Counted from the stretch's first letter, positions 14,746 through 37,377 are shown. The stretch is 64,000 nucleotides of DNA from Candidatus Collierbacteria bacterium (GCA_016183365.1 JACPES010000002.1:93831-157830); one strand, 5' to 3'. A program made the numbers and translations. Notes: generated by a model from the sequence alone, not told the origin.

Positions 14746-14964
14746 TTAGCTATTTAATTCTTCTTTGGAGATTTTGCTTTCACGAAGAATGGAAAATAGC
14801 GTGCCTTCTGGAATTTCCCGTAAATGAAACGGTACATTGGCGCGAAGATTCGTTTTTGGATGTCTGAAAATCATATGGCTACCGGTGGTCCTTTGTAGAA
14901 TAAAGCCCAATTTTTCCAACTTACGGATAAATTCTTTGGGTTTGATGGCCGGAAGTTTTCCCAT
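14746..14964 (-). CDS. hicA: HicA-family mRNA interferase toxin
   Basis: 72 aa; KLGFILQRTTGSHMIFRHP (YcfA/HicA fold with a conserved His). Confidence 0.8.
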   Translation of the reverse strand: MGKLPAIKPKEFIRKLEKLGFILQRTTGSHMIFRHPKTNLRANVPFHLREIPEGTLFSILRESKISKEELNS

Positions 14965-14967
14965 GTA

Positions 14968-15225
14968 TCAAACAGCTACTTGAGGAAATCTAAAATCGAG
15001 AACAGACAAAAAGGATTGATCGTCAGAGGGGATTTCTTCCCCGTCTTCTCTCATACATTCTACAAATCCACCAATGGCGTCGATAGCCATTCTTCTGGCC
15101 TCATCCAACGTTCTGCCATATGTCACACAACCCTGCAAACTGGGGACAACTACAGTATAACCCCCTTCAGGCTCGGGCTGAAAAATAACATTAAATCTCA
15201 ATATTCTTTCTGAAATTTTATTCAT
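14968..15225 (-). CDS. hicB: HicB-family antitoxin (UPF0150, RNase H-like fold)
   Basis: 85 aa; FQPEPEGGYTVVVPSLQGCVTYGRTLDEA is typical of the HicB N-domain. It lies immediately upstream of hicA in the same operon. Confidence 0.75.
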   Translation of the reverse strand: MNKISERILRFNVIFQPEPEGGYTVVVPSLQGCVTYGRTLDEARRMAIDAIGGFVECMREDGEEIPSDDQSFLSVLDFRFPQVAV

Positions 15226-15483: not shown

Positions 15484-16482
15484 TCAGTCAAGGAGTTGTT
15501 GCACTTCACTTATGATTTCTTCTAAACCTCCCTCAAGAACAACATCGAGGTTATGCCATGACTTGTTAATTCTATGGTCGGTAATTCTATTTTGCGGGAA
15601 GTTGTAGGTTCGGATTTTTTCGGCTCTGCTTCCACGACCTACCGCTGTCGTCCGTTGCTGCTCTAAAGTTTTAAGCGTCTTTTCTTGTTCTATTTCCCAC
15701 AATTTAGACCGCAATAGCTCCAGAGCTATGGATTTATTTTGTTGTTGGGTTCTTTCTTGTCTGACGGAAATAACCAGACCACTGGGAATATGGGTTAACC
15801 GGACAGCCGTGCTGACTTTATTTACATTTTGACCGCCTGGTCCGCCGGAATGGGAAAAAGCCCACGCCAATTCATTATCTTTGATTTCAACTTCTAAGGG
15901 AGTGATTTCCGGCAAAACTACTACCGATGCGGTCGAAGTGTGTATCCGGCCGTGGGATTCGGTTTGGGGGATCCGCTGGACCCGGTGAACGCCTGATTCG
16001 AATTTTAATAAGCCATAAGGTCCAACCTGTGATTCTGAATTCTGAATTCTGAATTCTGAATTTGGCGCGCCGGCAACTTTTATTATGCCGTTGTCTATAA
16101 CGACGGTTTTTAATCCAATAATATCGCAAAATCTGCTGTACATCCGCGCCAGGTCTCCAACCCAGATTTTAGCCTCATCTCCTCCGGCTCCGGGGCGGAT
16201 TTCGATGGTGGCGAAACGGGACAATAATTGCTGATTGTCCCGGCTTTGCCGAGTATCCCGCTTCGCCCTGTACCAGACGGTACGGGGCTCCGCGGGATTA
16301 ATTGTTGATTGTTGATTGGAGGATTGTTGAAAGTTAATGCTTTGCCCCAAAACCCGTTTTTGGTCTTCCAATCTTTGTATTTCTTCTTGGGCCAGAGCCG
16401 ATAATTCCGGATCATTTAACAATTGCCGATTGCGGGAGATTTCAAATTCTAGTCGTGAAATTTCATTCTGAAGATCGTTCAA
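15484..16482 (-). CDS. prfA: peptide chain release factor 1 (shortened N-domain; tripeptide motif PQT)
   Basis: GGQ motif (SGGPGGQNVNK) and GVHRVQRIPQTESHGRIHTS, which matches the RF1 PxT region. The start is TTG and overlaps the stop of a short upstream uORF. Confidence 0.88.
   Translation of the reverse strand: MNDLQNEISRLEFEISRNRQLLNDPELSALAQEEIQRLEDQKRVLGQSINFQQSSNQQSTINPAEPRTVWYRAKRDTRQSRDNQQLLSRFATIEIRPGAGGDEAKIWVGDLARMYSRFCDIIGLKTVVIDNGIIKVAGAPNSEFRIQNSESQVGPYGLLKFESGVHRVQRIPQTESHGRIHTSTASVVVLPEITPLEVEIKDNELAWAFSHSGGPGGQNVNKVSTAVRLTHIPSGLVISVRQERTQQQNKSIALELLRSKLWEIEQEKTLKTLEQQRTTAVGRGSRAEKIRTYNFPQNRITDHRINKSWHNLDVVLEGGLEEIISEVQQLLD
16032..16059. repeat. 7-bp x4 tandem repeat (attctga) inside prfA
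   Basis: gattctgaattctgaattctgaattctgaattt encodes NSEFRIQNSES. Confidence 0.8.
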
Positions 16483-17005: not shown

Positions 17006-17998
17006 TTAATTTGATTTGGAGAATTCCATTCTGAACACTCCGAGAATTATTATACCAGTTGCCGCCAGAAAGGCTAGGCTCAAAGGTTCTTTCAGGAATA
17101 ATATCGAAACAGGTATGCCAAACAGGGCTTGCATATAAAGGAAGCGGGAGGCAATTAGAGGCCGAACTAATTTGGCGGCGGCTTCAAATGCCATAAAGCC
17201 CAAGACAGATGAAATTAAAGATAAATATAAGATTCCGTACAGCAAAATCTTGGGAGTGAGGGTAAATGACAGTGGCGTCAAAATATAGTTTGGATTAATA
17301 AAATAAATTATTGGCGCCAAGGCCATGGTGCCGCCAAGAAACGCCAATGCCATCAGAGTGATCGGAGAATTCTGCTGAATATTTTTGGCGTATTTGATTT
17401 TAGATAGCCATGTAGAAACCGCCCAAACTATGCCGGCTGATAAAACTAACAAATTGCCGGTAAATCGCGGGTAATCCGAACTGCCTTGTAGCCACAAGGG
17501 TTCGAATATCACGATTATTAATCCGGCCACGGCTGCAAAAGTGACCGGGTCTGCCCGCAACGCTTCGCGTAGCGATGCGGGCGGGGAAACTTTATTAATT
17601 TGCCGGTTAAACCAATTTAAAATCACCGCGGTAATCAATGGGTTTAACGACATGATCAAAACCGCCCGGCTGGCATAGGTTAAATTCAAACCTAGATAAA
17701 GCAAGATTAGCGAGGCAATTGGGCCAGAAATCCCCAATAAAGTTATCAGCAAAGTTCTGCGGAAAGATAAATATTCCCCGGAAGTTTTCCAGCTATAAAG
17801 GGCCAGTGGCGCAAAGATTAAAGAGGCAATGCTCAACCTATACCACAGCAGAGGAAGCGGCGGTAAAAATTGCAGCGAGGCTTTTATGATCGGGAAACTA
17901 ATTCCCCAGATTAAACTGGTTAAGAGCAACAGTTGAATCGGTTTTCTATTATTATTATTTGTCGGCACTGATACTTTAATTGTATCCTGACAAGCCAA
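17006..17998 (-). CDS. EamA/DMT-family transporter (10 TM)
   Basis: Polytopic 330-aa protein with a duplicated EamA-like architecture. Confidence 0.65.
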   Translation of the reverse strand: MACQDTIKVSVPTNNNNRKPIQLLLLTSLIWGISFPIIKASLQFLPPLPLLWYRLSIASLIFAPLALYSWKTSGEYLSFRRTLLITLLGISGPIASLILLYLGLNLTYASRAVLIMSLNPLITAVILNWFNRQINKVSPPASLREALRADPVTFAAVAGLIIVIFEPLWLQGSSDYPRFTGNLLVLSAGIVWAVSTWLSKIKYAKNIQQNSPITLMALAFLGGTMALAPIIYFINPNYILTPLSFTLTPKILLYGILYLSLISSVLGFMAFEAAAKLVRPLIASRFLYMQALFGIPVSILFLKEPLSLAFLAATGIIILGVFRMEFSKSN

Positions 17999-18023
17999 TA
18001 TGCAACCAATGTGTTGTCAGACC

Positions 18024-18935
18024 CTATTTCTTTTCTCCGGTCAGGACTCCGATGCCAATCAGGATGATTCCCAAGATGGTTAGCGGCGCCAGACTCTCGT
18101 GAAGAAATATCAGGCTGACCGGGATGGCGATTAAAGGCTGTAAGTAGGTAAATAATGATGCTTCCGAGATCTCGATTAAATTTTGTCCGGCCAGATAAGT
18201 AGTCGCTCCGATGATGGATCCAAAAATCGCCATATAAATTACCGGCCCCAGAACTTGAGTTTGCAGGATTTCAGGCCCCAAAAACGTCAACGGATTTCCC
18301 GATGGCAAAGATAAAATGAAGAAAGTTATAGCGCCTATCCAAAAACTAATCATAGTTACGGCTAGTTTGGAGGTTTTCCGATAGGTTTTTTTAGCCATTG
18401 CCAAATATCCAGCCCAGATGATGTTTTGCAATAATATTAAGGCGTTTCCCAGGAAGTTGCCGGATAAATATCCACCCTGGTTTATTAATGGTCCAACGGT
18501 GATAATCAATGTTCCCAACAGAGCTAAAGCCAGTCCTTTCCACTCTTTCTTGGTTTCTTTTTCCTTTAATATAAAAATTCCGGTCAAGGTGACAAATAGG
18601 GGTGAAACCGAGGCTACCAGCGAGGCCTCAACGGCCGAAGTGAATTTGAGGGAATAATACAAAATCCATAATATTAAAGTGGTTCCGATCAACTCCAATA
18701 GGCTGATTTTTACTAGGGTTTTTAAATTCAACCTCCATTTTTGCCAGTTTAACGCCAGAAAAGGAAGGGTAAGTATGGCGGCTAACAAAAACCGGTAAAA
18801 CAGAAATCTTTCCGGAGCGGTAAACGACAGGGCCGGTTTGACGATCGGAATTGCCAATCCCCAGACGATGGTATTGATGATCAATAATAGGTAGGCGAGT
18901 TTGCGTTTAGGGGACATGGGAAGGGAGTTCTTCAA
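18024..18935 (-). CDS. EamA/DMT-family transporter
   Basis: Polytopic 303-aa paralog of the upstream gene. Confidence 0.65.
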   Translation of the reverse strand: MKNSLPMSPKRKLAYLLLIINTIVWGLAIPIVKPALSFTAPERFLFYRFLLAAILTLPFLALNWQKWRLNLKTLVKISLLELIGTTLILWILYYSLKFTSAVEASLVASVSPLFVTLTGIFILKEKETKKEWKGLALALLGTLIITVGPLINQGGYLSGNFLGNALILLQNIIWAGYLAMAKKTYRKTSKLAVTMISFWIGAITFFILSLPSGNPLTFLGPEILQTQVLGPVIYMAIFGSIIGATTYLAGQNLIEISEASLFTYLQPLIAIPVSLIFLHESLAPLTILGIILIGIGVLTGEKK

Positions 18936-20175
18936 TTGAAATTATCTTCTGCGTTTTTTCCTTCATATTCTTTAGAGTCACCACATTTTTTGCCGCTTCT
19001 TCCGGCCCGATAATCACCACGTACGGAATTCCCTTCCTGTCTGCGTATTTAAGTTGTTTATCCAATTTTGCTTCCGGCTCCAGATAAACCTCCGCGTTGA
19101 TACCTGCTTTACGGAGATTGTTTGTCACTTTAAGAGATGACTGGTAAAAATCCGGATCGAATACGGTAACTAAAACTTTGGTTTTGATTGTCTCCAATTT
19201 TGGATACTTTCCGTTGGCTTTAAGAATTTCTTCCAAGACCATATCTCCCATCGCAAAGCCGACTCCGGGAATTCTCTGCCTGCCGCCGATTTCTTCGGTC
19301 AAATTGTCATATCGGCCGCCCCCCCAGATAGATCTGAACTCTCCCTTAATGTCCCAACCCTCAAACACTGTCCGGGTATAGTAATCCAGCCCCCGGACAA
19401 TCGTCGGATCAAACTCGACAAATTCTCCCACCCCCATTGTCTGCACCAGAGATAGAATTTTCGATAGCCATTCGGAGTTGACATATCCTTGTTTGTCTTG
19501 AAGAATATTTTTCAATTGTTTTGTTTGAGTCGGGTTTAAGCCCTCTTGCCCTAGCATCTTGTCGAAGACGACGTCGGGAACTTTTGATTTCTTGTCAATA
19601 ACTTTAAAAATCGCCGTCATTTTTTCATCACCTGCACCTATCAACTCCAATTTCTCCCGGATATATTTCCTGTCATTTATTTTAATTCTGACTTCGGTAG
19701 GGGATAACCCTAGACTTTGATACATCTTTGCCGCTACCGAAATTACTTCGGCGTCGACCTCCGGATTTTCCAATCCCAAAATATCCACATCGCATTGAAA
19801 AAATTCTCGTCCCCGTCCCCGCTGGGGAGTTTCATAGCGAAACCGCGGCCCAAAGGAAAACCATTTGATCGGAAAAACCAGGCTTCCGGCTTTCTTGCTT
19901 ACCATCCGCGCCAAAGTCGGTGTCATTTCCGGCCGCAGCGCTAAAATTTTCCCAGATTTATCCGTTAAAGTAAACGCCTGTTTTTTTACCAATTCTTCGC
20001 CGGACTTAGCGGCATATAAATCAAGGGTTTCCAACATCGGCCCTTCGTATTCTTCAAATCCAAAGCTTTCGGCGATAGACTTAAACTGTCGATACAGCCA
20101 ATTCCGAAACGCCATCTCCAGCGGATAAAAATCCCGGAAGCCTTTGAGTAGTTGTGGTGTATTCATAGTTTGCAT
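18907..20175 (-). CDS. hisS: histidyl-tRNA synthetase
   Basis: Class II motifs (FRYE..Q.GRGREF.Q; GGGRYD) and a C-terminal anticodon-binding domain. The start may instead be MNTPQ at 20166. Confidence 0.9.
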   Translation of the reverse strand: MQTMNTPQLLKGFRDFYPLEMAFRNWLYRQFKSIAESFGFEEYEGPMLETLDLYAAKSGEELVKKQAFTLTDKSGKILALRPEMTPTLARMVSKKAGSLVFPIKWFSFGPRFRYETPQRGRGREFFQCDVDILGLENPEVDAEVISVAAKMYQSLGLSPTEVRIKINDRKYIREKLELIGAGDEKMTAIFKVIDKKSKVPDVVFDKMLGQEGLNPTQTKQLKNILQDKQGYVNSEWLSKILSLVQTMGVGEFVEFDPTIVRGLDYYTRTVFEGWDIKGEFRSIWGGGRYDNLTEEIGGRQRIPGVGFAMGDMVLEEILKANGKYPKLETIKTKVLVTVFDPDFYQSSLKVTNNLRKAGINAEVYLEPEAKLDKQLKYADRKGIPYVVIIGPEEAAKNVVTLKNMKEKTQKIISIEELPSHVP

Positions 20176-20179
20176 TGTA

Positions 20180-20609
20180 TCAAAGCTTTGATGCTGACAA
20201 TAGCCCTAGGGCTGCAGACATGCGTTGTTTTTCATTGCCTAAATCGGTTCGGTTAGAAAGAATAACCACTGTAAGTTTTTCCCGCGGAATTTTCAGGATA
20301 ATGTTTCTAAATCCGGCCCATGATCCGCTCTGATAGATAACTTTTGTTTTAAGTCGTTTTCTAATTAACCAGCTGAATCCTGCTTTGCCAAATTTTCCAT
20401 TTCTCCCGGTTAACCAGAGTTTCTTCGTCCCATGCCCGACTCCACTTGACAATATCTTCGATGTTGGAATAAACTCCTTCGTCTCCAACAATATAATTCA
20501 AGGGATCATAATCACAAAGCCTGAATTTATTTTTTGGCAGTGATTTATAACCTAATGCCAGATTTTTAATTTCCGGTTTTGTTTGATTTAGAACATCGGA
20601 GTTATTCAT
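20180..20609 (-). pseudogene. truncated and frameshifted serine hydrolase / beta-lactamase-family gene (C-terminal half only)
   Basis: Two overlapping frames (20361-20609 and 20180-20491) carry beta-lactamase-family C-terminal features: YSN.EDIVKW, then ..GHGT...SG...VVILSNR. The N-terminal SxxK catalytic part is absent. Confidence 0.5.
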
Positions 20610-20801
20610 TTCTAGCGGCTAAAAAATATTTTTTTTTAAAAATTTCCGATAAGTAATCATTGAAACTTGTTCAATAATTAAAGCCAGTAAAACATATCCA
20701 GCGTCAGAATATTTATATTTACTTCCCGGCGAGAATAGGGGAGTCGGCCGACTTTCCACTACTTTCAAAGCGTCCGTCATTTTTCATCTTTGTATCGCAG
20801 T

Positions 20802-20827
20802 ACTTCAATTATTTAAATAATTGAAGT
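20802..20827. terminator. perfect 13-bp-arm palindrome (acttcaattattt|aaataattgaagt) followed by a T-run
   Basis: Seen directly in the sequence. It lies at the 3' end of the minus-strand pseudogene, so it may act as a bidirectional terminator. Confidence 0.3.
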
Positions 20828-20830
20828 AAT

Positions 20831-21795
20831 TTACTTTTTTTGAATCTCATTTTTCCATTTGTAATACGCTGTCATTTCTTGGTCAGAAATTGGGGTAATA
20901 ACAGAAAGTTGTCCTTGGGCACCGGCAAGAATGGTTTTAGCGACGCGGAATTCTTCAAAATTTACCAAAACTACTCCTTGTTGGTCGTTATCTTTAATAT
21001 CTTTTATAGTCTTTCCTTCTCCGGCATACATGCCGAAATATCTAATCGAAGAATCTTTGATTTCGTTTGGGTCAACCTTTATTTCAATTTGTTGAAAATA
21101 CTCAACTTCTCCGGCTATGATTTCCGGCAGTTGGGCTTGGAAACCAGGCAAGTGATTGGTTTTGGTAATGCCTGGTTTAACTTATCAACGGCCTCGTCAA
21201 CAATCGTTTCCCGCTCTTCTCGTGTCTGCGCATATCTCCAAACTCTTTCTGAGGTCGCTTCGGTTGATGGAATCATGACAATAATTTCTGGATCGCCAAT
21301 TTTAGCTAGTTCTGTTGTCATCTTCTGGATTCTTGGAAGATTGAAAAGAACAATAGATGTTTCCGGTTCGCTCTTGACTTTGCAAACTGGATATTTTCCC
21401 GGAAGATCTTGCTCCCATTCAAACGTGAGGCAGTTCCAAACGATGAAATCCGTGGATTTACCTTGCGAGAATTCCATCAGGTCTTTTGCCAGAAGTTTTT
21501 CGTTTTGTTGCGTATCGTCTGCCTCAAGAATCCAGCGTCTCCGGCGCTGGTTTTTAAGCCAATCGATAAATATTGCCACCTCAGGACTTATTTTTGGCGG
21601 TTTTTCACTGCCGTTTAACGCTCGCTTGATAATTTCTTTTGAATAACGCAGCCCCGTTTGTTGTCGGATTTTTCTCACTGCGATTTTAAACGAGTCCTTG
21701 TCGTTTGGGCTAGCGATAATGGCTTGAGCAGAAAATTCATCCTGCTCTAGCCGCTTAAGAAATGATTGAGAGATTTGTTCTATATTGATTTTCAT
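20831..21795 (-). pseudogene. frameshifted gene of unknown function (two frames: 21115-21795 and 20831-21151)
   Basis: The downstream ORF continues the upstream one after a frame change in the 21115-21151 overlap. No recognisable family. Confidence 0.4.
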
Positions 21796-22702
21796 ATATT
21801 CAGTAATAGATTCTTTTTAAGAATTTTTATTTTTCCACCAATTTCCGCAGAGACTTCTTGTTTCAAATTCTTTACTCTCGCAATCAGCTTTTTGCCAGAT
21901 GGTTGGAGAATAGGAATCTCAAGAGTGTTTTTTGATTGTTTAAAAAACTCTGTCAGAGCAACAGCCGTGGTTCCGCTGGCGCAGGCAGTCTCGTAAAACA
22001 GAGTTTTGATATCGCGGACCCAAACGACAGGATCAATTCTCAATATGTTGCTATCGCGTGAAACAAATATGACTCCGGCAGCCGGAACAGAGAGGGTTAG
22101 GCCAAGTTTTTTGAGGATTTTAAGTCCTTGGAGTTTAATTTCTTCTCTAGAACTACTTATTATGGGCCGATAAGTAATTACTTGGGTGATTCCTTCGAGA
22201 GCTACAATGAAGGTAATCACCGGCCTCTCTGACGTAATCGCGGTTTTTTAATATGGGCATTTGAGCCCAGACCATACTTTGTCGATCGATTCTGGCTTTT
22301 AAGTTTTGGTTTGTCCCGGAAACAGAAATGCTAACCTTCCCCGGTTTTCCTTTAAGGGTTAAAAATGCCGCGCATCTGGTGGCATTGCCGCAAAATTCTC
22401 CTCCTGCCATTACCAGGCGAGTAGGGGAATAGTCAATAAATCCTACTTGTTCGACCATTGAAAATTTGGCCATGATTTTTGTCGTTAATAATTTTTCTTT
22501 CATCAGAAAACCTATTGATTCCTTTGACTAAAGCGGTGATATTCCTGCCGGGATTTAGAATGGTAAGGTTAATTTTTCTGTTCATAGTTTCTTCATTAAA
22601 AACCCCGCTTTTTAGCGGGGTAACACCCAAAACTTCAACACTTGCTCGTGGTGGAGTTTTAGGTTGGCAGCAAAAATGGTCAGCGATTCTTCGTTTCATC
22701 AT
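21792..22702 (-). pseudogene. dapF: diaminopimelate epimerase (DapF)-like gene split over three frames
   Basis: GGEFCGNATRCAAFL (N-domain catalytic Cys) and ETACASGTTAVAL (C-domain catalytic Cys) fall on separate overlapping ORFs (22433-22702, 22153-22503, 21792-22220). Confidence 0.5.
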
Positions 22703-22772
22703 GTTAATACGTTAATTTATCAATACATCACTTTTGAAAATCTTGTCAATAATCAATTTGGCTTTGGAAATC

Positions 22773-22813
22773 ATGTAGATTGACAATGCTATAGCATATC
22801 GAATTTACAAGGT
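22773..22813. repeat. nested palindromic element family D, degenerate copy (catgtagattgacaatgctatagcatatcgaatttacaagg)
   Basis: Shares catgtagatt ... gctatagca with the perfect copy at 39403-39442; the right arm has decayed. Confidence 0.55.
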
Positions 22814-22817
22814 TGAT

Positions 22818-23118
22818 TTAACTTGATCTTTTAGAAATACCGAAAAGACGGGTAAGGATTGTTTTATATCCGTTCATTCCCTGATCCAGCCAGTGGGCGA
22901 CGCGGGTTACGGTAGTCGTCGAGCCGCCGGTTTTTTGGTGATTTGTTTGTAAGAAAGATCTGTGGTCCACAGAAGTTGAGCCATTTGCCAGCGTTTTGCC
23001 GCAGCGTCAAACTCGCTGATTGTCAATAGGTCGCGGAAAAACGCGTTGGTTTCGGTCGGTGATTTCAGTTATAGAATAGCTCGAAACAATGTCTTATGTT
23101 CGGCGTCAGGATAGGTCA
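22818..23118 (-). pseudogene. YerC/YecD (TrpR-like) family regulator gene with an in-frame TAA and a frameshift in an A6 run
   Basis: The minus-strand translation is MTYPDAEHKTLFRAIL-TAA-LKSPTETNAFFRDLLTISEFDAAAKRWQMAQLLWTTDLSYKQI, then a frame change at tttttt (22933-22938), then HQKTGGSTTTVTRVAHWLDQGMNGYKTILTRLFGISKRSS*. This closely resembles B. subtilis YerC (...AQRWEVAKML...TYR.I..ETGASTATISRV...DGYEMMLERL). Confidence 0.55.
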
Positions 23119-23159
23119 TATTTACTACGCCGCAGCGTCGTTTGGAGTCAAAAGCCGAT

Positions 23160-23861
23160 TCATTTAACCAGTTTAACAGCTTTGGCTACTTGTTGTTTAT
23201 CGGTTTTTCCCGGAATAGTGATGACTATAATTTTATTTTCCAAATTCAGCTTGGTGAGGTCAACCGCTGTTTTAACTGCTGAAAGTTCAATCGCTTCCGT
23301 TCCTCCCAATTCCGCCGGCCGGTTGGTGGTGATTGAAAAAGTATTTTTATCCGGATTAATTTTAGTAACTTTCCCCCAAATAATTTTAGTTTTGCGGGAT
23401 TCGGGTTCTATAGTCGAAGCGACTACTCTTTTGGCGTCGAGACTGTCGCGGACGTCAGCATACCCCATGGCGATGATGAAATCTCCGATGGCCAATTCAT
23501 TAGGTTTGGCGGATTTCCCATTCCGCAATATCACAGTTTGATCGGTTATAGCCGCCATTCTGGTTGACCCGCTTTTGAGTTGAATAGTGATGGCTGAACT
23601 GGTAATATCTTTAATTTTTCCAATTAAAGCAATTCTGTTTTTGGCGCCCAAAACTTTTTTGGCTTCATCGGATTTTTCCTGAACAGCCTTTTTCAATCTT
23701 TCCTGGGCGGATTCAATAATTTCTTTTGCTGGGGTGGGGGATGCAGAAGGGGTAGGGGAAGCCGTCTGGGCGAAAGACGATGGTGGAAAAATAACAATAA
23801 AAATAAATACGAATAAACGAATAAACGAATAAGCTGAAATAAAGTTGTTTATTTTGTTCAT
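23160..23861 (-). CDS. hypothetical secreted protein (signal peptide, Pro/Thr/Ser linker)
   Basis: N-terminal signal peptide and a PTPSASPTP linker. Confidence 0.45.
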   Translation of the reverse strand: MNKINNFISAYSFIRLFVFIFIVIFPPSSFAQTASPTPSASPTPAKEIIESAQERLKKAVQEKSDEAKKVLGAKNRIALIGKIKDITSSAITIQLKSGSTRMAAITDQTVILRNGKSAKPNELAIGDFIIAMGYADVRDSLDAKRVVASTIEPESRKTKIIWGKVTKINPDKNTFSITTNRPAELGGTEAIELSAVKTAVDLTKLNLENKIIVITIPGKTDKQQVAKAVKLVK

Positions 23862-23869
23862 TTGTTCCC

Positions 23870-24328
23870 CTAAAACTCTGCCGTAGTATAGACCACGGTT
23901 AGAGTAATTTCTGCTTGTTCTTCATTTGGCGCCAGAGAAGCTATTTTGATCTCGTTAACTCCGGTGACAAGCTCAATTTTTTGAGAAAAAAGACCGGCCT
24001 CATCAGATGAAGCGAAGTATTCATTTTTTTCACTCACAATGGCCAGAGTGGATTCCGGAGTGGTTTTACCGGAAATCATCAATTCGCTTGATGAAACCAC
24101 CGAATTATCTTCCGGTTGGTCAATTGTTACGGAATGTTTTGGCGGGGTAGGCGTGGCGGTGGGGGAAGCGGTAGATAAAGAAGTGGAAATCGGCGATGAT
24201 CCGTTAGCCGTTCCTTCCGATCCGGCTTGATGCTTTTCTAGAGCCTGTCTGGCTATGACTATTCCGACTACTATCAATAACCCGACGATCAACCCTAGGA
24301 AAATTGCGACTACAAATTCTTTTCTCAT
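23870..24328 (-). CDS. hypothetical membrane-anchored / secreted protein (possible Ig-like domain)
   Basis: N-terminal TM helix, an S/T/P-rich linker and a beta-rich C-terminus. Confidence 0.4.
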   Translation of the reverse strand: MRKEFVVAIFLGLIVGLLIVVGIVIARQALEKHQAGSEGTANGSSPISTSLSTASPTATPTPPKHSVTIDQPEDNSVVSSSELMISGKTTPESTLAIVSEKNEYFASSDEAGLFSQKIELVTGVNEIKIASLAPNEEQAEITLTVVYTTAEF

Positions 24329-24383
24329 AGAGCTTTGCTTGAAGAGCATTTGGTAGTGTACCATATGATATATTCTATCTACT

Positions 24384-25037
24384 ATGGATATTACTTTTTT
24401 AGGGCATTCGAGTTTTAAAATCAGGGGAAAAAACGGAATAGTGGTCTGTGATCCTTTCTCTTCTAAAATAGGCTTCCCGTTTCCTAAAGTTTCAGCGGAT
24501 ATAGTTACAATTTCCCACCATCATTTTGACCACTTTGCTGTCGATCAGGTTTCAGGGACTGCTAGAATTGACAAGCCATATGTGATTGACGCTCCCGGCG
24601 AATATGAGCTGCTGGATATCGCGGTTTCAGTTCACCCGTCTTTCCATGACGCGGAAAATGGCGCCTTGAGGGGCAAAAACAATATCTCGGTAATTAGGAT
24701 TGAAGGGATCGCCATCGCTCATTTGGGCGATTTGGGGCACATCCTTTCCGATTCCGATATCAATTCTTTAGGGGCAATTGACATTTTAATGGTTCCGGTC
24801 GGAGGGGAGTATACCATCGGGTCTAAACAGGCTGTGGAAATAGCGGAAGCGATAGAGCCGTCAGTCATTATCCCCATGCACTACAGAACTGACAAGCACA
24901 GTTCGGAATTTGCCTTACTAGCGACGGTAGACGGGTTCTTGAAAGAGATGGGTAAGACCGGAATTGTTCCGGCAGAAAAATTGTCTTTGACGGCCGGAAG
25001 CTTACCCGCAGAAATGGAAGTGGTAGTTCTCAAATAA
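24384..25037 (+). CDS. MBL-fold metallo-hydrolase
   Basis: HxHxDH motif (ISHHHFDHFAV) with downstream His/Asp ligands. Confidence 0.7.
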   Translation: MDITFLGHSSFKIRGKNGIVVCDPFSSKIGFPFPKVSADIVTISHHHFDHFAVDQVSGTARIDKPYVIDAPGEYELLDIAVSVHPSFHDAENGALRGKNNISVIRIEGIAIAHLGDLGHILSDSDINSLGAIDILMVPVGGEYTIGSKQAVEIAEAIEPSVIIPMHYRTDKHSSEFALLATVDGFLKEMGKTGIVPAEKLSLTAGSLPAEMEVVVLK

Positions 25038-25091
25038 TAATAAATTGCTATATTGCTAAATTGTTCTATTGTTTGCTGTCCGCCAATTAAC

Positions 25092-25115
25092 AATCTAATA
25101 ATCTAATAATCTAAC
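25092..25115. repeat. 8-bp x3 tandem repeat (aatctaat) abutting the dnaB start codon
   Basis: caatctaataatctaataatctaacaATG. Confidence 0.7.
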
Positions 25116-25116
25116 A

Positions 25117-27750
25117 ATGAGTTCTCTTAAAGTTCCGCCTCATTCGGAAGAAGCCGAGAAATCAGTATTGGGCGCGATTTTGCTGGACAGCGAAGCCATC
25201 GTTAAGGTAGCCGAATTTTTACGAGCTGAACACTTTTATGATCCGTCGCATCAATCTATTTTCGCGGCTGAATTAGCCTTATATGAAGAGCGCAGCCCGA
25301 TAGATTTGGTGACAGTCTCCGATAAGCTTAAAAAGCTTAAGCAGTTGACGGAGATCGGGGGTTCTGACTATTTGGCTAAATTGGTGAGTGGGGTTCCGAC
25401 GGCTGCCAATATCGTCAGCTATGCCAAATTGGTTAGAGACTGTTTTACCAAAAGAGAATTGGTCCGGCTTTCCGGGGAAATGTCCACTTCCGCTTTGGAC
25501 GAAAGCCGGGAAGTAGTCGAGATTTTAGACGAGGCGGAGCAGAAAATCTTTTCATTATCCCAGCAGCAAATGCGTCAGGGATTTATTTCGGTTAAGGACG
25601 CTTTGGCCGAAAGCTTTGACCGGTTGGACGAAATTCAAAGAGCCGGGTCGGGACTGCGGGGAGTGGCTACCGGATACAATGAATTGGATGGAGCTTTGGC
25701 CGGACTGCAAAAAAGCAATTTAGTGGTTTTGGCCGCCCGGCCGGGAATCGGGAAAACTACTCTGGCTTTGAATATTGCCCAATACGCCGCGGTTACCAGT
25801 AAAGTTCCGGTCGGCTATTTTGCTTTGGAAATGAGCCAGGAGGAAATGGTGGACAGGATGTTGGTAGCTCAAGCGGACATTGACGCTTGGAAATTCAAGA
25901 TAGGAAAATTCAAAGACGAAGATTTTAACCGCTTGTCGGAGGCTTTTGGAATTTTGGCCGACGCCCCTTTTTATATTGACGATACTCCAGCTCTATCTAT
26001 TATGGAAATGAGGACCAAAGCCCGGCGGTTAAAGTCAGAACATCAGGTGGAACTTCTGATAGTTGATTATTTGCAGTTAGCCCGGTCGCGTAATCTGGAA
26101 AATCGGGTTCAGGAAGTTTCGGAAATCAGCCAAGGTTTAAAAAATCTGGCCCGGGAACTGAAGGTGCCGATATTGGCGCTGTCGCAATTGTCCCGGGCTG
26201 TCGAACATCGGGAAAGAAAAAGACCGCAACTGGCGGACTTGCGGGAGTGTTTGACCGGAGACACTCTGATTCTCATGGCCGATACCGGTGAATTATGCAA
26301 AATAAAAAATTTGGTTGGTAAAAGCGGATTCAAAGTGTTTTCTTTGGGTAAAGATAATAAATTAATAATTAGCAAAGTCAAAGAGGCAATTAATAGCGGC
26401 CAGAAAAAGATTTATTCGCTTTCCACCCAATCCGGCAGAACAATCCGCTGCTCTTTGAATCACCCGTTTTATACTTTGCTGGGATGGCAGAAGTTAGAAA
26501 CGATTAAAGAAGGAGAATATATTGCCATCCCGCGCGATTTACCAATTGATGCGAAAATCCGGCCCAAGCTTTTGGATACCGAAGCCAAAATAAGACTTTT
26601 GGGACACATGTTAAGAGACGGCAGTTTTATTCCCAGACGAATTTTGCAATATACATCCGTAAATTCGAAAAATCTGAAACAGGTGAGCATGGATGCCAAA
26701 AATTCATTTGCAGTTAACACCAGAATAGTGAAAAAACGAAATTGGTATCAAGTATATTTTACGAGTGTCCGACGGGTAAGTAAGAATTATAGAAATCCCA
26801 TGGTGCAGTGGTTGGATGATTTGGGTATTTGGGGATTGCGTTCACCGCAAAGATTTATACCCGGCGATGTATTTCTGTTGCCGCTTGACGATATCAAATT
26901 ATTTTTACGGCATTTATGGGCGACTGACGGATGCGTGTGGATTGCTGGAAATCAAATCCGGGTAAAGATTTATTACGCCACGGCCAGTAAAATATTTGCC
27001 AAAGATGTCCAGTCTCTTTTATTGAGATGCGGCATCTTGTCAAATATTCACATAAACAGGAAAAAAGGATTTGGAGATGGATATCATGTTTGTGTTGATA
27101 GCCGGGAGATGCAGACAAAATTTATCCAAGAAATCGGAGGGTTCGCCGACAGATTTGACCTAGTAAAAAAAGCCAAATTGATATTAGCCAAAATCAAACC
27201 CAATCCAAACTTGGATATTATTCCCAAACAGGTGTGGCCAATAATTGATCGGATGCGTAAAGCTAAAAAAATAACTTGGCGGGGCTTTGCTGAATTGTTA
27301 AAAATGTCTTACTGCGGCTCAACATTGTTTAAGTCAGGAATTAGTCGAGAGAGAATAAGAAGAATGGCGGTTTTCTTGGATGATTCAAAGATTTGGAATT
27401 TGGCGGATTCTGGAATTTATTGGGACAAAATTTCTTCGGTGAGATCTGAAGGAACTGAAGATGTTTATGATCTTCAGGTTGAAGGATCGCACAATTTCGT
27501 GGCCAATGATATTTTTGTGCATAACAGCGGAGCGATCGAGCAGGATGCCGACGTGGTGATGTTTTTGTACCGCGAAGACGAAGAAAATCAGGAAAATTTA
27601 ATTTTAGATATCCAAAAACACCGCAACGGCCCTCTACGTCGGATCAATCTTTTCTTTAGAGGCGACAGAATCAGATTCTACGGGGTGGAGCGGGGAGCGG
27701 ATAGGGGCGAAACCAAAGCCAAGCCGGTGAAGGAAAAAGATAAAGATTAG
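25117..27750 (+). CDS. dnaB: replicative DNA helicase DnaB, interrupted by an in-frame intein
   Basis: 877 aa. Walker A (ARPGIGKTT), then ...LADLRE | C...HN | [18 protein letters not shown]. With the intein removed the extein is 451 aa. Confidence 0.9.
   Translation: [877 protein letters not shown]
26248..27525 (+). mobile_element. DnaB intein (426 aa) with a LAGLIDADG-type homing endonuclease domain
   Basis: It begins with Cys (CLTGDTLIL, Hint block A) and ends VHN immediately before the extein Ser. Internal [11 protein letters not shown] and [12 protein letters not shown] are LAGLIDADG-like motifs. The insertion point is the classic DnaB site between RE and SG. Confidence 0.8.
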
Positions 27751-28328: not shown

Positions 28329-28417
28329 TGGTGCCAGGGGCGGGAATCGAACCCGCAAGAGCTTTGAGACTCACAGGTTTTTGAGACCTGCGTGTTTACC
28401 GATTTCACCACCCTGGC
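28329..28417 (-). tRNA. tRNA-Leu (anticodon CAA), class II with long variable arm, CCA encoded
   Basis: The reverse complement gccagggtggtgaaatcggtaaacacgcaggtctcaaaaacctgtgagtctcaaagctcttgcgggttcgattcccgcccctggcacca has a 7-bp acceptor stem, an anticodon loop ctCAAaa, a long variable stem-loop and a T-arm ggttcgattcc. Confidence 0.85.
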
Positions 28418-35589: not shown

Positions 35590-36354
35590 TTGTCCAAACG
35601 AAAAAAATTCGCCCTAGTTTCATTTTTATTAACATTGGGACTCATCGGACTCCAGTTTATTCCTTTGGACCGGCGATACGAGGCGATTATATTTTTTTCC
35701 GGTGTTTCAGTCCTTTTATCTGTTTGGGCTTTGTACTCCGACCTTAAAGGCATTAACTGGTTCACATTGATGATTTTGCCGGCCCTATATCCGGCTTCAG
35801 TCGGATTATTTTACTTCTTGTTGCCGGTCAATATTTTTTCGCGGTCGATTCTGTTGTCTTTGTTCGGAGTGGGGATGTACGCTTTGTTACTAACGGAAAA
35901 TATTTACGCCGTTGCGGCTAACCGAACCATCCAGTTAGTCCGGGCGGCTCACGCTGTTGGTTTTCTTTTGACGATTATAACCGCTGTTTTTTTAATCGGG
36001 ACGGTATTAGGATTAAGGTTATCATTTTGGGCTAACGGGATAATGGTAGCTGTAATTTTATGGCCTTTATTTATAAAAGGATTGTGGTCCGCGACTATTC
36101 AAAAAAGTGATCCCTCTAAAATTTGGTTGTATTCGGCGGTTTTATCGATAGTTGGGGGAGAGATAACGATGTTTATCGGGTTTCTGCCGATGACGCCTTT
36201 GGTAGCGGCCATACTGGTTTCCGGCTACTTCTACGTGACTTTGGGATTGATGCAACAAGATTTGCAAGAAAGATTATTTTCTAAAACGATTCAGGAATAT
36301 GTCTGGGTGGGGATAATCGTATTTCTAGCCGCGTTACTGGTTACATATCGTTAA
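35590..36354 (+). CDS. hypothetical polytopic membrane protein (about 8 TM)
   Basis: Hydrophobic periodicity throughout; no recognisable family. Confidence 0.4.
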   Translation: MSKRKKFALVSFLLTLGLIGLQFIPLDRRYEAIIFFSGVSVLLSVWALYSDLKGINWFTLMILPALYPASVGLFYFLLPVNIFSRSILLSLFGVGMYALLLTENIYAVAANRTIQLVRAAHAVGFLLTIITAVFLIGTVLGLRLSFWANGIMVAVILWPLFIKGLWSATIQKSDPSKIWLYSAVLSIVGGEITMFIGFLPMTPLVAAILVSGYFYVTLGLMQQDLQERLFSKTIQEYVWVGIIVFLAALLVTYR

Positions 36355-36543
36355 TAACAGAATCTAGAGTAGAGGATAGGAGGCTCATAAATCAACTTTT
36401 CACGGATATATCATTATATTTTCACAAGCTGGCAGTCGGGATGGAAAAGTGATAGTTGATATAGTTTGATAATGATATCAGGATGTGGATAACTGGTATG
36501 TAGGATGACAGAAAAAACCCGAAGAGGGATTGGGATCTTCCAA

Positions 36544-36687
36544 TTATATAGATTCCGGGTCCCTCCAGAGGCGGGCAGACGAGCCAGGAATGACAAACGG
36601 ATTCCATGTCAAGCACGGAATGACAAGAGAATATAGGTTCTGAAACTATACTTCCCCGCGATCAGAGTGGGAGACCAATCTATATAG
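36544..36687. repeat. MITE-like element bounded by inverted repeats attatatagattc / aatctatatagt
   Basis: The terminal inverted repeats lie about 130 bp apart. The interior carries ggaatgac words also seen near 28470 and 31930. Confidence 0.45.
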
Positions 36688-36989
36688 TCGCACAATATAT
36701 CTTTTACGACGTTATTCCAATATTGTCCGGAGAAGTGGCAAAGATGTCATTTTCCGCCTTTGGCGGAACTATTTATATAGATTCCGGCCTTCGCGGGAAC
36801 GATAAAATTGTTTTGTCCCCCAACAATTCTCAAGGTCAGCTAATTTTAGCCGCTCCAAAAGTTACCCGAATTTTTAAAGGTATTTATATAACCCCATCTA
36901 TTATCCCCAGAAAGCTTTCTAGGGGCATTCTACGAGGCCGGTTTTTGAAAGCCCATACCTTATAGACGATAGATGGTGGAAAATAAAAG

Positions 36990-37100
36990 GTGGTGATTGA
37001 ATATCGAAAATAGAAGATAGATAGTTTCCATTTTCTATTTTCAATCTTCTAACCCTATCTTCCATCTTTCTATCTTCTATCGTCTTAGAATTTACGAAAG
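36990..37100. repeat. hairpin-rich element (aatagaagatagatag ... ctatcttccatctttctatcttctatc), related to family C
   Basis: Direct and inverted copies of the gaagatag word. Confidence 0.5.
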
Positions 37101-37377
37101 CATTGTCGCACAATGTTGACATTAAAATAATATTCTGCTAATCTTAATTAATGTAGGTTAAGAGTTAAGTTTAAAATTGCCCTGCGGAGCAGGGTCCTGC
37201 TTCGCAGGAAAAATTTCGAATGGCTCCCCTACTCTGTCGGAGACTCCCTGTGAAACATTACGCGAAATATTTTCACACGGAGGGAAGCGTCAGGCGTATT
37301 TAATAAGTAAAATATGTATCATTAGGTTTATATATCAATATTTATTTGTTGAAGACCACCATTAGCAAGCTTGAGGC

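Follow-up and report, generated by a model that had tools for sequence, protein, structure and literature searches.

Between hisS and a gene for a secreted protein, the 64,000-nt stretch of a Candidatus Collierbacteria MAG analysed here (the window) holds a run of consecutive genes that are all disrupted. This locus raises the question whether these genes are dead, and if so whether they belonged to the lineage or were acquired, or whether the breaks are errors of assembly or are overcome during translation. A sequence-only reading of the window had placed four broken genes at positions 20180-23118. All four are present at the places given, on the minus strand, but the extent was under-called: the zone runs from 20180 to 23163 and includes a fifth casualty, the stub of an acetyltransferase gene. 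In minus-strand order the locus reads GNAT acetyltransferase, YerC-type regulator, CntK/HisR-like racemase, an enzyme with a TyrRS/CDPS/IsnA-type fold, beta-lactamase-family hydrolase and hisS. The downstream flank, hisS (18907..20175, minus strand), is an intact ORF of 422 aa with the Pfam domains tRNA-synt_His and HGTP_anticodon, and the upstream flank (23160..23861, minus strand) is an intact gene for a secreted protein of 233 aa, whose orthologues in the related loci L015 and L018 are 64-66% identical over their full length. Most probably, a gene block that is ancestral in Candidatus Collierbacteria and was inherited vertically lies in ruins at positions 20180-23163; a +1 shift in the middle of the racemase gene is an exception to the decay.

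The origin of the block was read from orthologous loci. From DnaB through the secreted-protein genes to hisS, the gene order of the window is shared by L015/L017, L016, L018, L019, L020, L022-L027 and L029, and the module genes in these loci are full length. Intact relatives (L015, L018 and others) encode a GNAT protein of 169 aa, a YerC of 98 aa, a racemase of ~265 aa (with the conserved shift), a protein of 357-360 aa and a hydrolase of 334-393 aa; the sequence-only reading had suggested looking in related genomes for intact counterparts of two of the genes, and these exist, as the complete YerC and a full-length racemase that carries the conserved shift. The block occupies the identical position, with the same flanks, in more than 10 related lineages (~35-80% protein identity); it is ancestral to the clade, and what decays in the window is therefore an ancestral module and not acquired DNA. 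The locus is nonetheless a mosaic, as the window hisS is of the L020 type (76% identity to L020 hisS) and the module genes are nearer to L015/L018. In L015/L017 an IS1595 transposase sits within the block, and yerC is an accessory member whose presence varies among the relatives. In the L028 contig, apparently an error-prone long-read assembly, genes are broken in large number, DnaB and hisS among them.

Of the acetyltransferase gene a stub of 38 nt remains (23126..23163, minus strand), which corresponds to about the first 12 codons and whose ATG overlaps the stop codon of the upstream secreted-protein gene. In DNA alignment the stub is homologous to the 5' end of the L015/L018 GNAT gene and is followed by a clean gap of ~471 nt up to the yerC start; the relatives' gene scores 55.8 bits against Pfam Acetyltransf_1. 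The adjacent yerC/yecD-type, TrpR-related pseudogene (22818..23119, minus strand) carries the two lesions that had been read from the sequence, namely an in-frame TAA at codon 17 (23069-23071), where orthologues read AAR, and a 1-nt deletion that turned A7 into A6 (T6 on the plus strand, 22931-22936) and changes the frame. The near end-to-end alignment with YerC was likewise borne out: with tblastn the window copy is 73-85% identical to the 98-aa orthologues, spread over two frames, and each half by itself matches Pfam PF01371 Trp_repressor below the cut-off of 27 (22.7 and 21.3 bits). The L018 orthologue passes both that model (72.2 bits) and TIGR02531 yecD_yerC (66.4 bits, cut-off 42.2). The window gene is thus alignable almost throughout with B. 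subtilis YerC and E. coli YecD, but it differs from them in being a pseudogene, and TIGR02531 itself is a hypothetical equivalog.

At the other end of the zone lies the remnant of a serine hydrolase of the beta-lactamase family, D-aminopeptidase/AmpH-like (20180..20780, minus strand), as recognised by PF00144, tblastn and DNA alignment. It had been described as C-terminal only and in two frames, correctly so: in tblastn the 334-393-aa orthologues align only from residue ~125 onwards, in two frames, and the ~125 missing N-terminal codons (a deletion of ~372 nt) include the Ser-x-x-Lys motif (ASLSKQ in relatives). In addition, a TAG interrupts the frame at 20619-20621, and near 20401 ~35 nt have been deleted with a resulting frameshift. 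A 53-aa fragment of the window reaches 30.6 bits with PF00144 (cut-off 27), but with the nucleophile region gone this score does not confer membership; the L018 orthologue scores 171.6 bits, and its best named relatives, D-aminopeptidase and AmpH, are matched far under their own cut-offs.

The neighbouring pseudogene (20831..21795, minus strand) derives from a clade-specific protein of 357-360 aa. A split at 21115-21151 had been noticed before; the split is real, though it is no simple frameshift but an internal deletion of 91 nt at 21151/21152, which removed ~30 codons, among them the invariant RWDxYL. In addition, one extra nt in an A7 run near the 3' end (20835-20841) costs the gene its seven C-terminal codons. 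The family has no Pfam or NCBIfam match and no significant sequence match in PDB, and its representative P0121, read by eye, has neither a HIGH nor a KMSKS motif; its Rossmann-type catalytic domain is structurally similar to class I aminoacyl-tRNA synthetases, cyclodipeptide synthases and IsnA (PvcA), so that the kinship is one of fold level only. At the 3' end of this gene lies a perfect 26-nt palindrome, ACTTCAATTATTTAAATAATTGAAGT (20802..20827), which is conserved in L015 and L018, spans the stop codon of the gene in relatives, and probably forms a putative terminator or attenuator hairpin.

The racemase gene (21792..22585, minus strand) is read in three frames, as had been observed, and encodes a CntK/HisR-like two-cysteine enzyme. 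Its stitched product of 265 aa aligns end to end with intact Patescibacteria proteins of ~265 aa and retains both catalytic-Cys motifs, GEFCGNATRC and ETACASGT, whose cysteines C65 (GEFCGNA) and C203 (ETACASG) are invariant in the racemase alignment A1; in the AF2 model of the unsplit homologue P0003 the equivalent residues are C66, which caps helix 67-77, and C202, which caps helix 203-214. The earlier label "dapF-like" was too loose. The N-terminal half scores 15.6 bits against the DapF model TIGR00652 (cut-off 114.65) and P0003 has no DapF match, while a PDB search with the family profile returned entries of the histidine-racemase type only, with the histidine racemases 9cr6/9cr1 at E = 3.6e-34 and CntK-type entries at ~1e-33. 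CntK of Staphylococcus aureus and HisR of Fusobacterium are accordingly the best relatives by sequence, and they share the two catalytic cysteines and the predicted two-domain fold. With its top NCBIfam matches, however, P0003 scores only 104 (HisR, NF052224, cut-off 400) and 72 (CntK, NF033599, cut-off 300), so far under these equivalog cut-offs that kinship amounts neither to membership nor to a substrate; moreover, the Collierbacteria gene lacks the staphylopine (cnt) neighbours of CntK and is frameshift-encoded in the clade. The window copy has one frame lesion of its own: a 1-nt insertion (A4 to A5, 22476..22480, minus strand, codon ~36) breaks the N-terminal half where relatives read INDKIMAKF in a single frame, so that the window would need a +1 shift there. 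Besides this, the near-invariant Gly of the PGGN motif is Arg (codon 14, 22544-22546). Judged by these changes, the window racemase still bears the conserved shift site but is killed by the insertion upstream of it and the Gly to Arg replacement. The second frameshift, which the sequence-only reading had also counted as decay, is present in every relative, with both halves under purifying selection.

Over the zone as a whole, four stretches (~35, 91, 372 and 471 nt) have been deleted, three A runs have gained or lost 1 nt, and two codons have become stops by substitution; each of the five module genes has its own independent lesions, and both flanks are unbroken. The hallmarks of bacterial pseudogenes are all present, with intact syntenic orthologues, real lesions and the loss of essential parts (Ser-x-x-Lys in the hydrolase, RWDxYL in the 360-aa gene, the PGGN Gly in the racemase and the whole of GNAT). 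Outside the zone the window consists of dense intact ORFs in which no other gene appears broken, and 48 long ORFs are intact, many of them containing A/T runs. With random placement in a set of ~70 genes, five broken ones would by our own arithmetic be adjacent with a probability of the order of 1e-5; since the other long ORFs are undisturbed as well, five adjacent broken genes are more than chance. The 48 ordinary ORFs end in TAA, TGA and TAG in the proportion 24/14/10, which upholds the earlier statement that TAA is a real stop here; because all three codons terminate ordinary ORFs, the genetic code is standard.

That the genes are in truth intact and the breaks mere consensus errors, i.e. 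homopolymer miscalls, is suggested by the position of the three 1-nt lesions in A/T runs of 5-7 bases and by the many broken genes of the L028 assembly. Yet the Logan contigs of 14 SRA runs, assembled per run, agree with the window at 100% identity, both over 17556-20830 and over 20802-26570 (of these de Bruijn contigs, those coming from the 23-kb side end at 20802/20803, the longest one coming from the hisS side reaches 20830, and the overlap spans the palindrome), and 48 long ORFs beyond the zone are unbroken despite their many A/T runs. Because the per-run assemblies match exactly, and because deletions of 35-471 nt, nonsense substitutions and a missing gene are impossible as homopolymer miscalls, the lesions are genuine; assembly error is excluded as their cause, and intact genes behind a faulty consensus have practically no probability, although at the level of single reads a minority intact allele may exist. 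This disposes of the locally poor assembly that had been proposed, and leaves the genuine island of pseudogenisation that had been its alternative, on the evidence of intact syntenic orthologues, identity across 14 runs, and large deletions and substitutions.

Two further explanations fare little better. Decay of horizontally acquired DNA, which the sequence-only reading had named beside relaxed selection, would be in keeping with the slightly lower GC of the zone (0.38-0.41 vs a window average of ~0.44), with the mosaic of an L020-type hisS and L015/L018-like module genes, and with the IS1595 transposase in L015/L017; a dead island of foreign origin is nevertheless very improbable, since more than 10 related lineages have the block at this position between these flanks, and since the zone edges show no integrase, repeat or tRNA boundary. 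Decay of the module thus stands, and acquisition does not. It is more improbable still that the module is alive through stop read-through and several frameshifts. The racemase of the clade does already have one conserved +1 shift, and its window-specific lesion, on a slippery AAA-A run, is likewise +1, but recoding would restore neither the catalytic Ser-x-x-Lys of the hydrolase nor the 30 codons missing from the 360-aa gene nor the lost GNAT, and TAA and TAG function as normal stops in this genome.

We therefore return to the decay of an ancestral module, which would have ceased to be needed in the lineage of the window, whereupon all five genes gathered independent lesions. The decay appears recent relative to the split from the relatives, because the stitched frames contain no further stops and show no excess of amino-acid change: window-versus-relative pairwise dN/dS is similar to relative-versus-relative values, although dS is saturated in most comparisons and a raised dN on the window branch could be masked. 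Clusters of bacterial pseudogenes that arise from relaxed selection and deletional bias are known, for example, from Mycobacterium leprae and recent host-restricted symbionts. The window resembles them in the several independent lesions that a gene carries, for the most part deletions and homopolymer indels, in the restriction of decay to a functionally linked block, and in the retention of intact orthologues by relatives. It differs from them in that a single module is affected, in a streamlined CPR genome with few other pseudogenes, and not the genome as a whole.

The shift in the middle of the racemase gene is of another kind. At the candidate recoding site GGUGAU-UAC-CUU-CAU (22207..22221, minus strand) the frame moves +1 in the window and in all relatives, and the same junction with the nucleotide island AGRRAGGCCGGTGATTRYCTTCAT is found in all 11 sequences read of the clade of the window, clade I. 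In clade I, NG86 omega is 0.07-0.35 in both halves (dS 0.3 to >2). Comparison thus shows the clade I shift to be older than the whole clade, with purifying selection on either side, and not a product of decay. A sister clade, clade II (L023, L024, L027, L029), has its racemase gene shifted +1 independently and elsewhere, ~10 codons past the first catalytic Cys, at GCC GCY UGU CUU CAU CCU, with omega of 0.10-0.26 on either side. All 15 sequences of the two clades have the 0-frame hexamer CUU CAU (CTTCAT) at the junction, at two different positions. Its C1 and C4 are synonymous in the +1 frame (expected frequency ~0.24-0.35 for C1 and 0.34 for C4) and yet invariant in ~9 lineages, in which synonymous sites elsewhere are saturated. 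GGUGAU stands exactly 3 nt upstream of CUU in most of clade I (AGUGAG in L025), and no Shine-Dalgarno-like element precedes CUU in clade II; most gene starts of the window have no Shine-Dalgarno motif either. The 0-frame N-terminal ORF ends shortly past the site, with an out-of-frame tail of 5 to 19 codons. The A-site codon of the shift is CAU, a sense codon for His and neither a stop nor obviously rare, so that the stop codon of prfB-type sites has no counterpart here, and a conserved RNA structure backed by covariation was not detected.

For these data a programmed +1 ribosomal frameshift has, in our estimation, an even chance of being the explanation. The peptidyl-tRNA-Leu on CUU would re-pair to UUC while the A-site CAU awaits decoding, and in clade I GGUGAU, as a putative anti-Shine-Dalgarno complement 3 nt 5' of CUU, would assist in the layout known from prfB. 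Synthesis of the full-length racemase would then hinge on the speed of decoding at the His codon. With somewhat greater reserve, we suggest that the Collierbacteria racemase is made via a programmed +1 shift at CUU_CAU which arose twice in the family and which, through the His codon in the A site, would respond to charged tRNA-His.

The competing explanation is a stably split gene, in which the N-terminal ORF stops a few codons beyond the junction, the C-terminal domain is translated from a conserved GTG (VITFIVALEGIT) with the purine-rich AGAGAGG as putative ribosome-binding site, and two chains with one catalytic Cys each assemble the pseudo-symmetric DapF fold. Every clade I sequence keeps the GTG, with the purine-rich stretch 3 nt before it; placed on the AF2 model, the clade I junction coincides with the first strand of the C-terminal domain, so that two polypeptides are structurally plausible there; the length of the out-of-frame tail varies, purifying selection acts on both halves, and gene callers annotate two ORFs. 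However, the spacing of only 3 nt from GAGG to GTG and the rarity of Shine-Dalgarno-led starts in the genome speak against such a start. For clade II a split protein is unlikely, because the shift falls within the N-terminal domain, where the Cys-capped helix ends in the P0003 AF2 model (pLDDT 95), and only an incidental ATG with no ribosome-binding site is at hand. Nor does a split gene explain the 0-frame CUU CAU at two unrelated positions (p ~0.002 by our estimate), the C1 and C4 of which should drift were the +1 frame alone relevant. We thus regard the split gene as rather doubtful and favour programmed frameshifting over it.

Such frameshifting has well-known parallels. The racemase site shares with prfB the P-site CUU, in clade I an element exactly 3 nt 5' that is putatively complementary to the 16S 3' end (GGUGAU-UAC-CUU vs AGGGGG-UAU-CUU), a Tyr/Cys codon in the E site, the early stop of the 0-frame ORF and conservation over deep divergence; it differs in its A site (CAU, not UGA), in re-pairing on UUC rather than UUU, in the clade II sites that have no Shine-Dalgarno-like element, in its host gene, an enzyme and not a translation factor, and in being a candidate predicted from sequence. 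CUU is the classic +1 P-site codon of prfB, Ty1, ABP140 and EST3, and +1 shifts are driven by slow A-site codons and stimulated by Shine-Dalgarno elements 3 nt upstream (PMC5009743). As in the "hungry codon" sites of yeast Ty1, ABP140 and EST3 (CUU_AGG_C, CUU_AGU_U), CUU is followed by a sense codon, and in those sites the shift is believed to be set off by slow decoding, with no need of downstream structure (PMC5009743). These, however, are eukaryotic sites, whose slow codon is rare through scarcity of its tRNA. In the ordinary genes of the window, in-frame CUU CAU is not avoided: 16,510 codons contain it 3 times, with ~2 expected. In a scan of ~250 kb (window and loci), CTTCAT with the frameshift topology occurred only in the racemase genes.

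A likeness also exists to the "corrective" frameshifting of an E. coli rpoB +1-nt mutant, in which the ribosome makes up for a 1-nt insertion in a needed gene (PMC7022156). By this analogy a tolerated indel is a possible origin of the conserved racemase shift. Unlike the mutation in rpoB, the racemase indel is fixed across the clade, at two independent sites with one hexamer, which favours a selected signal over leaky suppression. If programmed frameshifting is correct, the gene would sense amino-acid supply at the level of translation, next to the gene of an aaRS/CDPS-fold enzyme and hisS, and would be a rare case of chromosomal bacterial +1 recoding outside prfB, in a lineage mostly devoid of bL9. 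Loss of bL9 increases forward slippage in E. coli. Most Microgenomates lack this protein (PMC9297842). In a database of 5.8 billion proteins, the closest homologues of the C-terminal half (52-100% identity) are all short forms, and full-length forms are at most 48% identical.

The sequence-only reading had described a run of disrupted genes at 20180-23118, between hisS and a pair of secreted-protein genes, and every disruption that it named was found in the sequence; the zone itself extends to 23163. The genes discussed here are all carried by the minus strand. The yerC-like gene (22818-23119) reads MTYPDAEHKTLFRAIL-TAA-LKSP...SYKQITKK and, past a frame change at an A6 run, continues to ...GYKTILTRLFGISKRSS and a stop, both of its halves matching Pfam Trp_repressor. 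The gene called dapF-like in that reading, here the racemase gene (21792-22585), is spread over three frames, and its unknown gene, here the 360-aa gene (20831-21795), over two, while the beta-lactamase-family hydrolase gene (20180-20780) corresponds to its orthologues only from residue ~125 on and contains an in-frame TAG followed by a frame change. Stop-codon recoding does not account for these interruptions: the 48 long ORFs of the window end in TAA (24), TGA (14) or TAG (10), and since all three terminate ordinary ORFs the genetic code is standard. That recoding is not involved had already been argued from the use of TAA as a genuine stop elsewhere.

Comparison of the window with the related loci L015 and L018 resolved these disruptions into individual lesions. 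Of the GNAT gene a 38-nt 5' stub (23126-23163) is left, after which ~471 nt are deleted. In yerC an AAR codon has become TAA (23069-23071) and an A7 run A6 (22931-22936); in the racemase gene an A4 run has become A5 (22476-22480), and Gly14 of the nearly invariant PGGN motif is replaced by Arg. The 360-aa gene has lost its nearly invariant RWDxYL region through a 91-nt deletion at 21151/21152, and a 1-nt insertion in the A run at 20835-20841 brings its stop seven codons forward. The hydrolase gene, finally, lacks ~372 nt of its 5' end, and with them the Ser-x-x-Lys motif, and shows a TCG to TAG change (20619-20621) as well as a ~35-nt deletion with a frameshift near 20401. This amounts to nine independent lesions across five adjacent genes, the Gly-to-Arg substitution not included, with deletions and homopolymer indels predominating.

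A locally poor assembly, which had been offered as an alternative, is rejected. An exact-protein look-up found 14 contigs, each assembled per run from 14 SRA runs (SRR12113383 to SRR12113433), and 14/14 are 100% identical to the window, jointly covering 17556-20830 and 20802-26570; independently of these contigs, the types of lesion settle that the decay is real. The two sets of contigs share no more than 20802-20830, a stretch that holds a perfect 26-nt palindrome: on the 23-kb side the contigs stop at 20802/20803, and on the hisS side the longest one reaches 20830. Breaks at hairpins are usual behaviour of de Bruijn assemblers. The palindrome itself (20802-20827) is kept in L015 and L018, where the 360-aa gene has its stop codon within it and the hydrolase gene starts ~20 nt further on; it may be a terminator or attenuator. 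A different picture is given by the related 154.6-kb locus L028 (ENA ERZ1286166 contig_2474), probably an uncorrected long-read assembly, in which DnaB, hisS, the hydrolase and the 360-aa gene are all fragmented, whereas in the window the module alone is broken.

Most of the comparative loci were obtained by exact-protein look-ups, scans of genome and metagenome contigs contributing 1 and 3 loci, respectively, and YerC orthologues were taken from syntenic loci. In L015/L017, L016 and L018 the gene order is DnaB, Lactamase_B_3, two secreted-protein genes, GNAT (169 aa), YerC (98 aa), racemase, the 360-aa gene (358-360 aa), the beta-lactamase-family gene (334-393 aa), hisS and two EamA genes. 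In the more distant L019, L020, L022-L027 and L029 the racemase gene adjoins the 360-aa gene and hisS is always near, the presence of GNAT, YerC and hydrolase being variable. The stitched product of the window's 360-aa gene has intact homologues of 357-360 aa at 70-72% identity (75-79% in the alignment). Because relatives share the block at the same site, it is ancestral to the clade and not an acquired island. Of the explanations proposed from the sequence, genuine pseudogenisation is thus borne out and decay of acquired DNA is not: the zone is well explained as the decay of a dispensable ancestral module, which as such is ordinary. It provides a clean case, dated by comparison, in which a streamlined CPR genome has shed an entire functional module, and it means that deposited hypothetical proteins such as HYU89_00855 (a 226-aa ORF at 21115-21795 on a 175,921-bp contig of Candidatus Collierbacteria bacterium) and HYU89_00860 are pseudogene pieces.

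No further stops were found on scanning the stitched frames, and dN/dS between window and relatives resembles that among relatives, from which we infer, within the limits set by saturated dS, that the decay is recent compared with the divergence of these lineages. A relative-rate test on the window branch was uninformative on relaxed selection, dS being saturated and the locus mosaic. Accessory genes of the module have been lost repeatedly in relatives. Some 36 matching residues of yerC are left in L022 (228-407) and the gene is absent from L020, L023 and L026; hydrolase homology is undetectable in L024 (2927-3509), and L025 is likewise without a hydrolase. The 360-aa gene is lengthened to 519-543 aa in L025 and L026, and in one relative (L015 8496-9032; L017 5177-5713) yerC is separated from the racemase gene by a DDE_Tnp_IS1595 transposase ORF (178 aa), which has an unannotated 92-aa antisense ORF beside it. 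The adjacent hisS (18907-20175) occurs in Collierbacteria as two very different types in one syntenic slot: the window's HisS shares 76% identity with the L020 type and 41-43% with the L015/L018 type, except for a stretch near residues 360-400 with 82-85% identity to the latter. The module genes beside it are closer to L015/L018, and the hisS-module locus looks recombinant.

The second frameshift of the racemase gene, which had been counted as decay, is a different matter, and is the part worth pursuing: it is a clade-wide feature of either recoding or gene fission. Gene calls split the racemase of every relative, too, into two overlapping ORFs. The window's second shift coincides with the junction of its clade (clade I, 11 sequences), with ...REAGDY|LHC... 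in frame 0 and VITFIVALEGIT... in frame +1, and a nucleotide island, AGRRAGGCCGGTGATTRYCTTCAT, is common to all 11 sequences while its flanks are far more diverged. Both halves are under purifying selection within clade I, with NG86 omega at 0.07-0.30 (N-half) and 0.10-0.35 (C-half) and dS from 0.3 to >2. The closest homologues of the C-half in a set of 5.8 billion proteins (52-100% identity) are all short forms, every full-length form being at most 48% identical to it. Together, the conserved junction, the purifying selection and the short-form homologues show the shift to be old, stable and compatible with function. L028 shares this site and was left out of the rate and selection arguments, as its essential genes are riddled with frameshifts.

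A second clade (clade II; L023, L024, L027 and L029) was reached through proteins starting with MPPAAPxVFIL (P0164, P0168-P0170, P0173-P0175). Here the interdomain junction is in frame and a different +1 shift occurs about ten codons past the first catalytic Cys, frame 0 reading ...GNATRSAAC-L-H-P... to a stop and frame +1 ...VFILxNxPG..., with omega of 0.10-0.26 for both parts, i.e. purifying selection. The frame 0 nucleotides are GCC GCY UGU CUU CAU CCU in clade II and GGU GAU URY CUU CAU YGU in clade I, so that CUU CAU stands at the junction in 15/15 sequences. Given one site, the chance that an identical in-frame hexamer would also stand no more than a few codons from the second junction is ~0.002 by our estimate. 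Bases 1 and 4 of the hexamer are synonymous in the +1 frame, with expected frequencies of ~0.24-0.35 and 0.34, and are invariant in about nine lineages across which synonymous sites are otherwise scrambled; neither frame alone explains the hexamer. In a scan of ~250 kb of window and related loci, the frameshift topology at CTTCAT was found in racemase genes only. A representative-library search with the N-half did not establish a third site; most proteins that it returned were full-length or truncated by a contig end, and P0183 was the one further N-ORF of clade I.

We give an even chance to programmed +1 frameshifting at this hexamer, and we consider it rather doubtful that the gene is simply split into two proteins; what weight remains falls on something unrecognised. 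In an AF2 model of the unsplit homologue P0003 (pLDDT 95) the clade I junction lies in the first strand of the C-domain, which would make a split protein plausible there, but the clade II junction is predicted inside the N-domain, at the end of the Cys-capped helix, where a split would be implausible; a single frameshift signal, by comparison, would explain both. In clade I, GGUGAU stands exactly 3 nt ahead of CUU, with a Tyr or Cys codon between. It complements AUCACC, a near-universal sequence of the 16S 3' end. The classical +1 shift codon is CUU, as in CUU_U of prfB and CUU_AGG_C of Ty1 and ABP140, and +1 shifts are driven by slow A-site codons, with SD-like stimulators acting from 3 nt upstream (PMC5009743). 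By our reasoning, a tRNA-Leu(GAG) that slipped onto UUC would pair through two Watson-Crick pairs and one G:U pair. Against programmed frameshifting stand the A-site CAU, an ordinary codon, the occurrence of in-frame CTT CAT three times in ordinary genes of the window, and the lack of an SD-like element in clade II. A further caveat is that gene starts here rarely show SD motifs: as an indication, 37 of 47 mechanically chosen, uncurated starts have no SD-like core within 25 nt upstream, leaders being A/T-rich. The canonical prfB site CTTTGAC, sought as an in-genome +1 control in the release-factor gene (15484-16482), is absent. A search for conserved RNA structure around the shift site gave a weak invariant hairpin (-6.3 kcal/mol), which we do not count as evidence; it shows no real covariation, another caveat. 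Some context speaks for frameshifting: in E. coli, ribosomes slip forward more often once bL9 is lost. This protein is missing from most Microgenomates (PMC9297842).

The racemase family profile matches solved histidine racemases (E = 3.6e-34); the top NCBIfam matches are HisR and CntK, with scores far under the cut-offs, and the DapF model is not matched. No sequence-family match was found for the 360-aa protein, and the nearest named relatives of the hydrolase are D-aminopeptidase and AmpH. In other Patescibacteria, members of the racemase family (P0018, P0032, P0091, P0113; ~450-460 aa) carry a fused GNAT acetyltransferase domain, which supports a functional link between the adjacent GNAT and racemase genes of the Collierbacteria block. 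Co-decay and conserved adjacency are evidence that racemase, the aaRS-fold enzyme encoded by the 360-aa gene, hydrolase, GNAT and YerC work together, and offer a functional handle on this uncharacterised, clade-specific protein. A tentative but reasonable reading of the module, placed as it is beside hisS, is a pathway that racemises and derivatises an amino acid, possibly histidine. The His codon in the A site would fit the histidine theme and suggests, speculatively, a shift that senses charged tRNA-His. To our knowledge, prfB is essentially the one bacterial chromosomal gene for which programmed +1 frameshifting is well established; the racemase would be a second gene family, with two independent sites, the same CUU_CAU hexamer and a sense codon in the A site, and, if true, a directly testable natural case of hungry-codon frameshifting. 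The case also cautions against taking every "frameshifted" gene of a CPR MAG for an error or a pseudogene.

Inspection of the long ORFs elsewhere in the 64 kb found no signs of disruption. Overlapping ORF pairs at 59.5-62.3 kb, considered as broken genes, are separate pilin-like and PilM genes, and gaps at 14.7-15.5 kb are occupied by a HicA toxin and HicB antitoxin pair (14746-15225), flanked by a 382-aa gene and the release-factor gene. Other toxin-antitoxin pairs (Gp49/HTH, PhdYeFM/ParE) are inserted within the hisS-module region of relatives. A search for RNA genes in the decay zone found none, the sole RNA gene seen being tRNA-Leu at 28329-28417. Within 36354-38406, ~1 kb with a single 80-aa ORF (36723-36965) lies 5' of a tyrosine recombinase gene (37378-38406; Phage_integrase 134 bits); this sparse stretch could mark the border of a mobile element or a second site of degradation. 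DnaB (25117-27750; 877 aa) is interrupted by an intein that contains a LAGLIDADG homing-endonuclease domain (Intein_splicing 98 bits, LAGLIDADG_3 63 bits), and its orthologues in L015, L018 and L029 are intein-free at 449-451 aa.
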